Origin: Eledone cirrhosa | Lineage: Eukaryota | Length of the DNA: 64,000 bases | Direction of reading: 5' to 3' | NCBI GenBank assembly: GCA_964016885.1 | Contig: OZ024741.1 | Span: forward strand, 323,392,001-323,456,000 | Shown: piece by piece, positions 5,328 to 41,053 of the stretch | How positions within the stretch are numbered: the stretch's first letter is position 1 | Layout: each line of letters opens with the position of its first letter | The notes under the pieces: model-generated | Database searches by the model: none | What the model was told of the DNA's origin: nothing | The model's input: only the letters and a program-made list of their open reading frames with translations | Position numbers and translations under genes: made by a program

Positions 5328-5463
5328 AAATAAAGGATTATGAGTTCATGCAATTGACTTATGTTTCGTCACTATTATAACTCCGGAACTTATATCTTCG
5401 TTGAGTGCTCTCTATCCGTGTATATATATATATATATATATATATATATATATATATATACAC

Positions 5464-6135
5464 GCATAAATTCAGGCTGTTCAGTTTGTTTACAAACGAA
5501 CAAAGCGACGTTATAATAAGCGCCGCTAAACTGATACGTGCATATATGTATGTGTACCTGTATGCATATGTATGTATATATGTATATATATATATATATA
5601 TGTGCATGCTACTGTACGTCTGTATACATATATGTATGTACGTATACATGCATACTTACATTTAAGTAAGTGCCATACTAAGAGTGAGAAATGAAATTTC
5701 GTTTTCATTTTGTTTCAATTTATCGTTTTCGGTATGCCTGACCGATTTAACTCACTCAATATGCAAATTAGGCTGCTCAGCCGTTAATTTTCATAAGGAA
5801 AGTATATACTTTCGAACGTTCAACTATCTGGCAGATGGGTAAACGGTGCTGATGATAGCTAACAAGCTTGAAACTAGTACATCGTTCCTGTGTCAGTGTT
5901 GAACAAAAAGGTGACGTGGTTGCCTTAACACCGTATGGCATAAATTCAGGCTGTTCAGTTTGTTTACAAACGAACAAAGCGACGTTATAATAAGCGCCGC
6001 TAAACTGATACGTGCATATATGTATGTGTACCTGTATGCATATGTATGTATATATGTATATATATATATATATGTGCATGCTACTGTACGTCTGTATACA
6101 TATATGTATGTACGTATACATGCATACTTACATTT
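5464..6135 (+). repeat. ~200-bp direct duplication (5464-5663 and 5938-6135) around a hammerhead-bearing segment
   Basis: GCATAAATTCAGGCTG...CATACTTACATTTA occurs twice, almost identical. Confidence 0.9.
5842..5886 (+). ncRNA. Minimal type I hammerhead ribozyme
   Basis: AACGGTG-CTGATGA-T-AGC-TAACAA-GCT-T-GAAA-CTAG-TA-CATCGTT; 7-bp stem I and palindromic stem III. Confidence 0.85.
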
Positions 6136-6947
6136 ATATATATATATATATATATATATATATATATATATATATATATATATATATATATATATATATA
6201 TATATATATATATTTATATATATATATGGTAGTTAAGATGCTTCCATATATGTATGTATATATATATATGTCTAATGGTAGCTAAGATGCTTCCATAGGC
6301 GGTATGCCGGTTGAGCACTCTATGCCCCTACGGAGCAGAAAGAGGATATGCTCCGAAATCAATAGACGTATCCGAGGAACCTGCCAGTCTAGAGTCAGGT
6401 CGATCCACACATGGATCGCACCTCGAGCTGTTCGCCGGGGAAACAATTGTAACACACAATAAATTGAGTTCCGATGCATCACTGATTTTTCGTTTTCCAT
6501 TCTATATATATATATATACAGACAAACACATGTTATGTATAGTTGTATATTTGAGTTGTTCTGTATCTTTAAATGACAATACAAGCAGCTACAACTACTA
6601 CTACGGCATCAGCGTCATCACCATCATCATCATCATCATCATCATCATCATCATCATCATCATCATCATCATCACCACTACCACCACCAACAACAACATC
6701 AAAATTATCAACATCAACAAGAACGCATCTAACACTGGCATTTAAAATATACACATTTCTATAAAATATCCCTTAAAAGACGTTATTTCACCTTTGAAAT
6801 ATAAATACTTTTTGCGGAATTTTTGTTCAGGTTTTGCAGAGCATAGTATGACAAGACAATCTGGAAGTGATGTATGTATGTATGTATGTATGTATGTATG
6901 TATGTATGTATGTATGTATGTATGTATGTATGTATGTATGTATGTAT

Positions 6948-7557
6948 GTTTTGTTTTTAGTCCTGCAGGATGTCCAAAGTCACCCTCCTCACCAAGAAAC
7001 CTTGGTGGGGTTGCCAGTTTAGTCGCCAACGACCCGACCATGGGACAGGTTGTACTGGAATACATGTTACCAGTAGCACAAACTGGTGACCTGACATACA
7101 AAGGGAAAAGGAGCTCTTAAGATTCAATGGCCATCCAAAAATCACCGGGAGAGATGACCCCCTTAGCCTTTGTCAAGGCAGAATTCTAGGAGAAGGAAAA
7201 CTCTGATATAACACCTGCAACTCTAATGGTATCCAATGATGTTGACTTGTTCTTCTTTTTGGTAAATATCATCTTGGTTAAGAGAGTGGGACTGGCTTTG
7301 TGCAGTGCCTTTGCTCACTATAAAAGCTTCACGGCACAGGCATTGCTTTATATCTGGAGATCTCTCTGCACTTGTCGTCACATGGTACCATGGGCCCAGC
7401 ACTATGTGTCAATAATTATCACAAGTGTAGTGTTTGTACCAGAGTTTTCAAGTAGCTGGCTGGACTAAAAAGTCACACTCGTTCAGCGCATCGGTAAGGG
7501 TTCTCCTACATGGATATAAAGTAGCGGCCGTACTCGAAAACGAGTTGGCAGCCACCA
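6948..7557 (+). mobile_element. Non-autonomous bipartite RTE derivative, copy 1, with the 5' ~150 bp inverted
   Basis: RTE-type 5' UTR motif CTAGGAGAAGGAAAACTCTGA, remnant C2H2 finger, CTCG-AAAA-CGAG hairpin and (ATGT)n tail; 6948-7100 is the reverse complement of ~7640-7789. Confidence 0.75.
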
Positions 7558-7643
7558 TGTATGTATGTATGTATGTATGTATGAATGTATGTATGTATGT
7601 ATGTATGTATGTATGTATGTATGTATGTATGTATGTATGTATG

Positions 7644-8251
7644 TCAGGTCACCAGTTGGTGCTACTGGTAACATGTATCCCAGTACAACCTGTCTCATGG
7701 TCGGGTCGTTGGCGACTAAACTGGCAACCCCACCAAGGTTTCTTGGTGAGGAGGGTGACTGGACATCCTGCAGGAGTAAAAACAAAACCTGTCAAAAGGG
7801 AAAAGGAACTCTTAAGAGTCAATGGCCATCCAAAATCACCGGGAGAGATGACTCCTTAGCTTTTGTCAAGGCAGAATTCTAGGAGAAGGAAAACTCTGAT
7901 ATAACACCTGCAACCCTGATGATATCCAATGATGTTGACTTGTTCTTCTTTTTGCTAAATATCATCTTGGTTAAGAGAGTGGGACTGGCTTTGTGCAGTG
8001 CCTTTGCTCACTATAAAAGCTTCACGGCACAGGCATTGCTTTATATCTGGAGATCTCTCTGCACTTGTCATCACATGGTACCATGGGCCCAGCACTATGT
8101 GTCAATAATTGTCACAAGTGTAGTGTTTGTACCAGAGTTTTCAAGTAGCTGGCTGGACTAAAATGTCACACTCGTTTCAGCGTATCGATAGGGGTTCTCC
8201 TACATGGATATAAAGTAGTGGCTGTACTCGAAAACGAGTTGGCAGCCACCA
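7644..8251 (+). mobile_element. Non-autonomous bipartite RTE derivative, copy 2 (colinear, ~610 bp)
   Basis: Highly similar to copy 1; (TATG)n on both flanks. Confidence 0.8.
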
Positions 8252-8322
8252 TGTATGTATGTATGTATGTATGTATGTATGTATGTATGTATGTATGTAT
8301 GTATGTATGTATGTATGTATGT

Positions 8323-38572: not shown

Positions 38573-38944
38573 CATATATAATTGCAAATATGTGTATGTG
38601 TATGTGTTTGTTTGTGCGTGTATGTGCGCGCGTGTTTGTGTGTTTGTGTATGTGAAAGAGATAGTTTTATGATGGTTGATTCAATGTTCTGTTACTCTAA
38701 CACTTCTCCTGTATGTTTACCGGGTCATTAGACAGAAGAGTCTAACGACCCGGTAAACGTAAAGGAAAAACTTCAGAGTAACAAGACACTAAATCGGCAA
38801 TAATAGAGCTATTAATTCCTACTATGGTACTGAGTACTCATTCTCATGTTTTCAATACCAAACTGATACTTTTTCAACCTCAGTACATATATATAAACAC
38901 ACACACACACACACACACACACACATATATATATATATACATAT

Positions 38945-39822
38945 AGGTCATAAATACCGCTCCATCTTTAACCGACACAAAGTAAAACTAGGATACTCCT
39001 GCACTAAGAACATGAATGCCCACATCACCAACAGCTCTAAGAGCAACACCCCCACCAGGGTGCTCTTGCCGTAAGCCCGAAGCTTGTCCCCTTCAACAGC
39101 AATGCAACACACCCGCTGTAATTTATGAAGCTGTGGTCACTTCCAACCGACCAAATCAACCACAGGAGGTCAAATCCTATGTGGGTATGGCGGAGGGCCG
39201 ATTTAAAGAACGCTTCCTGAACCACCAGTCGATCTTTAGGTACCCAGACAGACGTTCATCCACGAAACTCGCGAGCCACGTATGGTCCCTCAAGGACTCA
39301 AGTATAGACTACTCCATTCAATGGAAAGCCATCACTAAATCCAAGCCATACGCAAGGGGAAATCCGTCGTGTGGAGTATGTATTGATGAACGAATACATA
39401 TTCTAAAGAGATTATGCTATAGTGATTGCCTAAACACGAGAAAATGAATTCTTCACACGTTGTCCACACGTCTCGAAACACCTCTTACATAACTACAAAA
39501 CTCCGGATTGAATCATAACAACATCCTAATTTTCTCATCAACTAGAAACTTTTCGGACTTTCGCAGTTATCTCCCTTACACTTCTCGCACGCTTTTTAGT
39601 ATTGCCTGTGTGAAGTGACGGTTTCCGCGCATGCGCGTTCGTACGGTTGTCCTTCCTGTTCCGTATAACCATGCCCATTACGAGCTGAGGATCCGCTAAG
39701 GTGAAACAATTGTTTTTGGTATGGTGAACTAACTGTTGTGTAACCATTTCCACTTCTACCCAACTCGTCCCATGGACTGAGTGCTCTACCACTACGGATA
39801 TTACCTTCCAGTGTTCTACCAC
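38945..39822 (+). mobile_element. Penelope-like element 3' part (linker, GIY-YIG endonuclease, pseudo-LTR)
   Basis: HKYRSIFNRHKVKLGYSC, CSC...CPL...C, VIY...YVG...FKER..NH, CGVC..E and LN; hammerhead downstream; (TA)n flanks. Confidence 0.88.
39678..39721 (+). ncRNA. Minimal type I hammerhead ribozyme in the Penelope pseudo-LTR
   Basis: CGAG-CTGAGGA-T-CC-GCTAA-GG-T-GAAA-CAATTG-TT-TTTG; weak G-U-rich stem I. Confidence 0.7.
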
Positions 39823-39953
39823 TATATATATATATATATATATATTTATATATATATATATATATATATATATATATATATATATATATATATATATATA
39901 TATATATATATATATATATATATATATATGTAATAAACAACATAAGGCAATTA

Positions 39954-40014
39954 TTTCATTTACCAGTGGTTTCTTAAAAGCAAAAAAATTTTGCTTTCAA
40001 TCATCAGAATGAAA
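39954..40014 (-). ncRNA. Type I hammerhead ribozyme with intact core
   Basis: TTTCATT-CTGATGA-[TTGAAAGCAA...TTGCTTTTAA]-GAAA-CCACTGG-TA-AATGAAA. Confidence 0.87.
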
Positions 40015-40285
40015 AAATCGTGGCGTATTTTTGACGTTGGATTTAAAAAACCTAGTATGTTGGTTAAATTCCTGAAAACTGTAGAGTGCTCAACTAATCG
40101 GGCTGGAAAGTGCCAATCGCATATGTAATATAGAATATGCTTCAATCAATCCCGGTTGGAGCTGTATAAATGAAGTAATTCCGTCGGAAAAGTCCAGGAA
40201 AAAAGAGTGCTCTATGTAGGTAACAGAGCTTAAAATGTAGGTAACAGAGCTTTAAAATCCAACGTCAATAAATACGCCAGGATTT

Positions 40286-40346
40286 TTTCATTCTGATGAT
40301 TGAAAGCAACATTTTTTTGCTTTTAAGAAACCACTGGTAAATGAAA
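40286..40346 (+). ncRNA. Type I hammerhead ribozyme, inverted copy, intact core
   Basis: Same fold as 39954-40014: 7-bp stem I and 10-bp stem II. Confidence 0.87.
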
Positions 40347-41053
40347 TAATTGCCTTATGTTGTTTATTACATAACTATTAAGCTCTGTTACCTACATAGA
40401 GCACTCTTTTTTCCTGGACTTTTCCGACGGAATTACTTCACACACACACACACGCACACACACACGCACACACGCACACACACACACACACACACACACA
40501 CACACACACACACCCACACACACACCCACACACACACAGACACACACACACACACACAGACACACACACACACACACACACACACACACACACACACACA
40601 CACACACACACACACACACACACACACACACACACACACACACACACACACACACACACACACACACACACATATATATATATATACATATATATGTATG
40701 AATGTATGTATAGAATATTTGATAATACACTGTATGTTTATTTCAAAACATTTTGAAGACCATAGGCTATGCGTTTTAAAGTAGTGACTATGTCACTTAC
40801 ATAGTTTCGGGAAAAAGCAAAGGGAAGCAACTGATGGCCGTTTCTCGTTCGTTAGCGGTTTGCATATCCTTTCGCTTCCACCGGGATTTATAGAAGCTGG
40901 ATTCTTATAGAATTCTAGTGATGTTTAAGAACTGATTAAACAGAGCAGTTGCCGGTCCAGCAGAAATTAGGAATTACTATCAGTGCTCTGAAATAGCGAT
41001 GTATGAATGTATGTATATATATATTTATATATATATGTGTGTGTGTGTGTATC

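Follow-up and report, generated by a model that had tools for sequence, protein, structure and literature searches.

The mobility of Penelope-like elements (PLEs) is poorly understood: the sole element reconstituted in vitro belongs to a clade other than the one considered here, and its protein-binding RNA motif has been narrowed down no further than a region. In the Poseidon PLE of Anolis carolinensis reverse transcription begins at two neighbouring internal sites, which lie in a stem-loop 3' of the hammerhead ribozyme, and the stretch between these sites makes up the tail (Frangieh et al. 2024, PMC11167929). The protein-binding motif of this element maps to the same region as the starts (PMC11167929). 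The available text of another study defines the PLE tail as an optional 30–40-bp extension at one end and gives as marks of the Hydra clade a CxCX5C linker, CxxC and CxH motifs around conserved E and N, RWK and DKT, insertion into (TA)n and canonical hammerheads (Craig et al. 2021, PMC8557442), while the accessible part of a further paper describes PLE hammerheads as minimal, dimer-dependent variants (PMC4209133). Already in print are PLE tails, internal initiation at a stem-loop close to the hammerhead, (TA)n targeting by the Hydra clade and non-autonomous PLE derivatives. Here we consider a stretch of 64,000 nucleotides (nt) from Eledone cirrhosa (contig OZ024741.1, positions 323,392,001–323,456,000 of the forward strand, hereafter the window), where the octamer GAGYRCTC, or box, recurs inside a PLE copy named C5, which its motifs place in the Hydra clade, and inside small non-autonomous families. 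The box is the 3' strand and the single-stranded extension of a conserved hairpin module, and not a free palindrome. Kept by Hydra-clade PLEs and their derivatives between the hammerhead and the (TA)n end, this hairpin-box module may well mark the start of reverse transcription in RNA, a role suggested by analogy with Poseidon, to which we give about an even chance.

Like Anolis Poseidon (PMC11167929), the elements described here have a structured region within ~100 nt of the hammerhead, two alternative ends with an optional tail, and AT-rich targets. In Poseidon that region is the site where reverse transcription starts and protein binds, whereas the module found here is known from sequence only. 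Poseidon also belongs to another clade (Penelope/Poseidon), its stem-loop is AC-rich and located inside the open reading frame (ORF), and its tail is 30–40 bp long, whereas here a defined hairpin with GAGY-RCU on its 3' side stands upstream of the start codon and the tail measures 66–88 nt. With the Hydra clade, as far as the available text of Craig et al. 2021 (PMC8557442) goes, the locus shares a CxCX5C linker, with a putative C-terminal GIY-YIG endonuclease, RWK and DKT in the homologues, canonical hammerheads and (TA)n insertion; two published consensus sequences contain the module, while the same portion of text has neither hairpin nor box nor non-autonomous derivatives of this clade. Another close likeness is to the animal retrozymes without long terminal repeats (LTRs), which the accessible part of bioRxiv 10.64898/2026.07.22.740005 presents as small hammerhead repeats sharing terminal pseudo-LTR sequence with PLEs and forming tandem arrays, of the kind found here at locus L046. 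That part of the study deals with vertebrates and with partners of Neptune/Poseidon type and argues from overall pseudo-LTR similarity (bioRxiv 10.64898/2026.07.22.740005). Unlike those retrozymes, the families considered here have only a ~30-nt structured module in common and insert in (TA)n. The initial annotation of the window had not recognised the motif as described, and we likewise found no description of the covarying hairpin-box of the Hydra clade and small hammerhead repeats in the literature, the supplementary figures of PMC8557442 being searched by word only.

Box sites and the hairpin module

Nine GAGYRCTC sites are present in the window, at 5403, 6313, 11905, 13219, 38832, 39779, 40084, 40205 and 40399; eight of them had been listed by the initial annotation, from which 40205 was absent. 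Dinucleotide-preserving shuffles gave 2.49 sites on average (standard deviation 1.64, maximum 7), and nine or more were reached in 0 of 100. The nine do not all represent separate events: one repeat family, present in opposite orientations, accounts for 11905 and 13219 (88% identity over 100 nt), and 40205 and 40399 occupy opposite arms of an inverted repeat (I2). BLAST of the nine sites was dominated by (TA)n matches, and only the relations 11905/13219 and 40084/40205/40399 were used; among the BLAST matches listed for the nine sites similarity between families is confined to (TA)n tracts. The hairpin module accompanies seven of the nine sites, with 38832 and 40084 as exceptions.

On the sense strand of the element the module reads RCUC, then 9–20 nt, often with an inner stem, then GAGY followed by RCU(C). 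Representative forms are as follows.

C5 (PLE) module: outer stem ACUC/GAGU, inner stem GUCC/GGAC, GCUC after GAGY
X module: outer stem ACUC/GAGU, inner stem UACU/AGUA, ACUC after GAGY
5k module: outer stem ACUC/GAGU, inner stem CGGA/UUCG, GCUC after GAGY
40k module: outer stem GCUC/GAGC, inner stem UGU/ACA, ACUC after GAGY

The Y of the box pairs with the upstream R (A-U or G-C), which accounts for its variable centre. The variable centre between kept arms, registered already in the initial annotation, is thus real, and it consists of a covarying base pair plus one purine; the palindrome by which the box had been defined proved incidental, the conserved unit being a strand-specific hairpin, RCUC...GAGY, followed by RCU.

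A simple hairpin descriptor was matched by 22 of 109 box orientations, many of them copies of the same few families, versus 5.7% of 20153 control GAG sites. RNAalifold returned no structure when the modules, which differ in length, were aligned by MAFFT, since these differences had been shifted to the alignment ends, and a covariance model was used instead. Its seed consisted of ten 28-nt modules chosen for equal length, in which 93.8% of cells are paired versus 78.6% in shuffles (a value reached by 0 of 500) and 24–61% in slid controls, with changes on both sides at five of the eight pairs. For 89 distinct rows fitted to the model the corresponding values were 95.2% versus 79.4% of cells paired and 117 double changes versus 40. 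Families without an exact box were recovered by the covariance model as well. We infer that the hairpin forms in RNA. Two other readings of the box were considered and dropped. A self-complementary RNA dimer, with GAGURCUC pairing to itself via G-U, does not suit the form commonest across species, GAGCACU. The reading of 6313 as an inverted tail with the 40k box in opposite orientation gave way to the sense-strand rule RCUC...GAGY-RCU, which fits all families.

At the two exceptional sites no such structure was found. Box 40084 lacks hairpin context; the other site is located as follows.

38832..38839, no strand assigned: box without hairpin, inside an old low-copy repeat

Relatives of this repeat are 70–87% identical over parts of the query only. 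Its box has neither a CUC partner nor a covariance-model match at E≤10, and probably is either a chance occurrence or a decayed module. An array with 150-nt spacing at G000:C15:25539691-25541294 is distantly similar (72–74%) to the 38832 element.

Carriers of the module in the window

The only carrier with coding capacity identified in the window is C5, with the following features.

38950..39822, plus strand: C5 PLE copy, 5'-truncated, with ORF, 3' untranslated region, hammerhead-like core, tail and (TA)n junction
39016-39447, plus strand: putative C-terminal endonuclease ORF of C5, with CxCX5C linker and CxxC motif in the translation
39685-39706, plus strand: hammerhead-like core of C5, from a core-motif scan
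39757-39822, plus strand: terminal tail of C5, with the (TA)n junction at 39822
39762..39788, plus strand: hairpin-box module of C5, box 39779-39786, composed of ACUC, GUCC/GGAC and GAGU-GCUC

At least 1902 candidate copies of this family were counted, variably 5'-truncated and all ending at (TA)n, with an identity of 93–95% in the 40 scored copies. Its module matches the hairpin descriptor, folds with z −2.03 (39742–39822) and gives a weak covariance-model match (15.6 bits, E 2.9). As for the marks of the Hydra clade, CxCX5C and CxxC occur in the window ORF and RWK, DKT and CxH in a homologue; the N-terminal motifs fall beyond the 5' truncation of the window copy, so that the check on them was confined to homologues. 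The latter were found with the upstream ORF of a longer C5 copy (44–47% identity, three of 704–721 amino acids) and contain the motif YRDD of the reverse transcriptase (RT) together with RWK, DKT, CxCX5C, CxxC and CxH, of which homologue P0001 has RWK, DKT, CxCX5C, CxxC and CxH. Insertion into (TA)n is seen at the junction 39822 and in the copies in loci L002–L030, and the terminal hammerhead is represented by the core 39685–39706, which fails both a strict hammerhead descriptor and Rfam. Pfam gave no match for the window ORF, and its homologues are likewise without a Pfam family, so the endonuclease assignment rests on motifs; alignment of the window ORF with a Pfam-positive GIY-YIG ORF of another element is weak (27% identity, E 0.032). 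Among five flank ORFs, four of which lie outside the element, Pfam found nothing for the C5 family, a search for longer proteins with the 143-amino-acid endonuclease fragment found none, and there was no full-length ORF in 7 kb around one C5 copy. Judged by its motifs, C5 is a Hydra-clade PLE.

The other carriers are small.

5229..5420, plus strand: copy of the small non-autonomous 5k family, module 5379-5412, box 5403, tail truncated at 5420
~5278-5323, plus strand: 5k hammerhead-like motif, with GAAA mutated to CAAA in this arm
5053..5196, minus strand: inverted 5k partner copy with intact hammerhead (5147 to 5102), proximal end next to (TA)n, without tail and without box
6262..6500, plus strand: 6.3k element of ~240 nt, resembling a short interspersed element (SINE), module 6288-6322 near its 5' end, 3' end at 6500 without tail
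6313, plus strand: 6.3k box, the sense strand reading GAGCACUC
near 6425-6450, plus strand: degenerate hammerhead relic of the 6.3k element
11860..11999, minus strand: second X copy, module 11903-11933, box 11905
13094..13273, plus strand: X family copy, an inverted dimer of very short body with an 82-nt tail, module 13198-13228, box 13219
13149-13153, plus strand: GAAAC, 3' half of the X hammerhead, predicted cleavage after 13171
39933..40244, minus strand: 40k partial tandem with inverted repeats I1 and I2, proximal end 39933 next to (TA)n; order on the minus strand: module 40230 to 40203 (box 40205), 140-nt 5' region, hammerhead 40007 to 39961
40270..40440, plus strand: 40k family copy, strict hammerhead 40293-40339, module 40381-40408, box 40399, end 40440

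The best covariance-model matches came from the 40k family, with 33.4 bits both for the minus-strand module 40203–40230 and for the module of the plus-strand copy (GCUC...GAGC-ACUC, E 2e-4, fold z −3.37); the hammerhead of this copy has helices of 7, 10 and 4 bp. The first part of the 40k partial tandem is the tail of an upstream unit, and its 140-nt 5' region contains the hairpin-less box 40084. Modules of the X family scored 19.3 bits (13219 copy) and 19.1 bits (11905 copy), and that of the 5k copy 20 bits (E 0.27). The 5k family has at least 547 candidate copies, among which 40 full-length matches are 96–98% identical; the inverted partner of the window copy forms with it the inverted repeat I4 (97% complementary), and its hammerhead passed the strict descriptor. 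A tandem array of 135-nt 5k hammerhead units without tails (L046:1440-2690) resembles an animal retrozyme array. One more large family bears the box, as GAGTGCT followed by T, A or C, and its hammerhead begins with TATTTTRT. In addition, a (TA)n-associated palindromic element at L088:3664-3720 and L119:8890 carries GAGCGCTC then TATCTC on both arms and gives only a weak covariance-model match (13.7 bits). The small box-bearing hammerhead families are non-autonomous derivatives of the Hydra-clade PLE. The families do not align beyond the module, but calling the carriers unrelated, as was done originally, needs to be corrected.

The most numerous carrier, the 6.3k element, has at least 3009 candidate copies, collinear over positions 1–239 with 84–92% identity; truncated copies have lost the left end, never the right one. 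Its module is a weak covariance-model match (13.9 bits, E 7.3). Since this element is SINE-like and holds the module near its 5' end, one might see there the A and B boxes of a promoter for RNA polymerase III, derived from transfer RNA (tRNA) as in SINE heads. The reverse complement of some tails does superficially resemble a tRNA D-arm, or what we take to be its consensus, and this reading of the antisense tail was dropped after ARAGORN had found no tRNA-like genes in the window; no tRNA-derived SINE head was thus recognised, no formal scan with A/B box consensus being made. Moreover, the tRNA-like orientation is antisense to the ORF of the autonomous element, and the same module stands just upstream of the start codon in ORF-bearing elements of polymerase II type. 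A polymerase III promoter is for these reasons hardly credible.

Position relative to hammerheads and element ends

The strict descriptor, comprising the hammerhead core, three helices and the cleavage site, was matched at three sites of the window, 40293–40339 (plus strand), 40007–39961 (minus) and 5147–5102 (minus), and at 84 sites across all loci scanned. From the predicted cleavage sites to the box there are ~80 nt at 5403, ~65 nt at 39779, 59 nt at 40399 and 47 nt at 13219, whose hammerhead is reduced to its 3' half. In full copies the (TA)n-abutting end lies 41–58 nt past the box start; the window copy at 5403 stops 17 nt past its box, where full copies of its family continue for 58 nt. 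Of the distances noted initially, that between hammerhead and box was reproduced (47–80 nt as measured), while the 10–45 nt given for the end has to be replaced by 41–58 nt.

Enrichment was estimated in 800 kb sampled from this genome as 80 segments of 10 kb, taken from seven contigs at fixed round coordinates. The box occurs there 46 times versus 17.5 expected from a first-order Markov model; by inspection of the listing, repeat families account for the excess, and about 15 of the 46 matches look like singletons. GAGYRCT was found 59–98 nt past seven of the 28 strict hammerheads that have 150 nt of sequence downstream, versus 1.7% of control windows; 12 of the remaining hammerheads reach (TA)n first and nine have neither box nor (TA)n. 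Conversely, covariance-model matches with E<1 in the window and sample are followed within 90 nt by (TA)n≥5 in 31 of 38 cases (10.5% at random) and preceded within 200 nt by a hammerhead core in nine of 38 (1.6% at random). Of 70 clusters of recurrent ends abutting (TA)n, seven contain GAGNNCTC within their final 100 nt versus 0.59 expected (p 2e-6), and among 1509 patterns of the type 3+NN+3 it ranks third, after two of (TA) type, being the best non-microsatellite pattern.

Independent evidence came from 77 metagenome loci that encode relatives of 45–60% identity and were chosen by protein similarity alone, on the alignment of five homologues; they form 61–72 sequence clusters. In their 235,200 nt there are 58 exact boxes, and GAGYRCT follows 40 of 73 hammerhead cores in ORF orientation, 38 times at 60–95 nt, versus 58 of 1540 control windows. 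Positional enrichment relative to hammerheads, on which the initial proposal depended, is thus observed both in the own genome and in other PLE loci, and we can confirm a conserved cis module that keeps its position relative to the hammerhead and is common to families that otherwise do not align. A CUC partner is present 4–26 nt upstream in 87 of 106 distinct instances versus 22% of controls, its fourth pair being G-C in 73 of the 87. The covariance model gave 104 matches at E≤1 in these loci, 97 having the orientation of the ORF. According to the available part of the PMC8557442 supplement, the published consensus sequences Hydra-2_Amil and Hydra-1_Ajap have the module after the hammerhead, and the latter also twice at its 5' end.

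These data bear on the view that the module has no function and is a leftover of the common ancestry of tails or a chance 8-mer. Shared descent is real, since all carriers are of one PLE clade or derived from it, and the ~15 of 46 sample matches that look like background singletons come near the 17.5 expected. However, an 8-nt island and its paired partner stay conserved between unalignable flanks across 61–72 diverged lineages, the spacing to hammerhead and junctions is fixed, the changes are compensatory, and none of the 100 window shuffles reached nine sites. Absence of function, already disfavoured, is therefore very improbable.

The tie to hammerheads has its limits. It holds for the Hydra-clade PLE and its derivatives, and not for hammerheads at large: no box was found in at least three hammerhead families of this genome, and a second autonomous PLE lineage (L026:156-1180) has no hairpin-box in its tail. 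A single ~30-nt module separates the hammerhead families that use it from those without it in one genome, a split that partner-specific recognition predicts. The L026 lineage has a Pfam GIY-YIG match, a CX4CxxC linker, its own hammerhead (~925–965) and a (TA)n junction. To a box-less family belongs also the minimal hammerhead-like core 5849–5873 of the window, which lies between two copies (5464–5602 and 5938–6076) of a 139-nt direct duplication (D4), 99% identical and 474 nt apart.

Four families have each two (TA)n-abutting 3' ends, a distal one 41–58 nt past the box start and a proximal one 3–11 nt 5' of the hairpin. The clusters of ends are given below, the counts of C5 and C7 being inflated by targeted searches.

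C5 (PLE): distal cluster C5, n=33; proximal cluster C20, n=8
5k: distal cluster C7, n=23; proximal cluster C9, n=18
X: distal cluster C8, n=18; proximal cluster C6, n=28
40k: no distal cluster listed; proximal cluster C67

Insertions are often inverted dimers, in which an extension of 66–88 nt is present on one arm only. Two alternative ends per family, inverted partner copies without the extension and a length of 66–88 nt identify this extension as a PLE tail. In the 77 loci (TA)n junctions were found either 0–14 nt before the module (8 cases) or 34–49 nt after the box start (10 cases). The published octopus consensus Hydra-1_Obim, as given in the available part of PMC8557442, stops ~45 nt past its hammerhead without GAGCACT, which looks like a tail-less proximal end.

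Box position relative to the ORF allows one to regard the module as part of the pseudo-LTR promoter or as an element of transcription start, preserved because it drives transcription of the downstream ORF. Within 100 nt upstream of residue 1 an exact box is present in 21 of 38 loci, only a one-mismatch form in 11 and neither in six, the positions being typically −19 to −46 and, farther out, about −79 to −101; autonomous copies accordingly have two modules before the start codon, one at a distance of 19–46 nt and one at about −79 to −101. The pseudo-LTR of Penelope and that of Chlamys-3 contain the promoter and start site, as stated in the available text of PMC8557442. However, an element acting as a duplex needs no covarying stem of variable length, and in the non-autonomous families, which keep the module in the 3' tail, transcription would point out of the element. 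We consider a promoter improbable.

A signal at the DNA level is another alternative: the GIY-YIG endonuclease or a dimeric ORF protein would recognise the duplex and direct cleavage and homing into existing copies, whence the tandem and inverted arrangements and the tail. The endonuclease of D. virilis Penelope needed tail sequence for recognition before cleavage, and the Anolis protein is a predicted dimer which cuts both strands (PMC11167929). The nearly palindromic box and the insertions as inverted dimers with one tail are in line with such recognition. Against it, GAGCACT has a strong strand bias in the 77 loci (101 sense versus 8 antisense relative to the ORF), and the GCUC and GAGC arms stand 5–24 nt apart, at variable length, with a covarying inner stem. 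Variable spacing together with compensatory changes is more readily expected of a single strand that folds than of a site bound as duplex, and a DNA-level signal is, in our estimation, unlikely.

Proposed role in reverse transcription and further observations

Taking Anolis Poseidon as a guide, one can assume that the RT of the element would bind the hairpin-box in RNA and that synthesis of complementary DNA (cDNA) would start 0–14 nt 5' of the module. In tandem or circularised transcripts processed by hammerheads, the next module would stand just past the distal end. Depending on which of the two modules initiation takes place beside, copies would arise with or without tail, which would account for both types of ends and for unit boundaries at the same site. 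The non-autonomous families may, as we propose, be mobilised in trans because they have kept the module. That one ~30-nt landmark, used for initiation by the telomerase-related RT of Hydra-clade PLEs, explains unit boundaries, the optional tail and trans-mobilisation for a guild of hammerhead retrozymes, unrelated apart from the module and parasitic on (TA)n microsatellites, across animal phyla is a broader claim, which we advance tentatively and hold somewhat short of an even chance. Stem-loops at the 3' end are common to long interspersed elements (LINEs) and their SINE partners and are recognised by the LINE RT, so that non-autonomous partners copy the hairpin to be mobilised, and in telomerase RNA a template-boundary helix fixes where the RT copies. 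Both belong to other classes of RT and element, and the likeness is one of working principle, with no membership implied.

The covariation suits the complementary strand just as well, and there a hairpin in minus-strand cDNA might serve second-strand priming or template switching and yield the inverted 5' copies typical of PLEs. In full-length copies a module does lie within 0–14 nt of the 5' junction, a position corresponding to the 3' end of complete cDNA, and inverted dimers are frequent. However, G-U pairs of the sense strand (GU and UG cells at four pairs) would become C-A mismatches in the complement, and a cDNA hairpin leaves the module in the 3' tail of 5'-truncated copies without such a role. 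We judge it a poor candidate compared with a start signal in RNA.

A number of observations weigh against the module as a start signal in RNA or against parts of its evidence. As to the fold, the outer stem has only 4 bp and the ATG-proximal copies lack the inner stem, which makes the fold alone weak; folds of single tails are mostly no better than shuffles (z<−2 in two of ten tails), the 89-row alignment, being fitted to the model, leans towards its structure, and, as complementary cDNA folds likewise, covariation cannot separate RNA from single-stranded DNA. As to the hammerheads, Rfam registered none in the window at gathering score or in 39500–40450 at E≤10, and permissive scans gave only microsatellite-driven noise of microRNA models, so that the hammerhead assignments rest on descriptor and core-motif matches. 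Two of the seven GAGNNCTC clusters came from targeted searches, and three of the seven have a non-YR centre. Finally, solitary non-autonomous copies have no second module past the distal end, and the start rule therefore needs tandem or circular templates, while the 6.3k family has been amplified to its at least 3009 candidates with the module at the 5' end only.

If the module acts as proposed, it would be a concrete candidate for the protein-binding RNA motif of the Hydra clade, and it allows a simple mutational test, in which the stem is broken and restored. It also explains the 8-mer common to non-aligning families and provides a signature for assigning small hammerhead repeats of invertebrate genomes to their autonomous partner.

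Two further stretches deserve mention. The unit of a tandem satellite at L093:700-8800 contains GAGCACTC, which makes up five of the 46 sample matches and is unrelated to the module. In the window itself, positions 48001–54000 have a GC skew of 0.90–0.94 over 6 kb, the plus strand being G-rich and almost free of C; presumably this is a strand-biased satellite.

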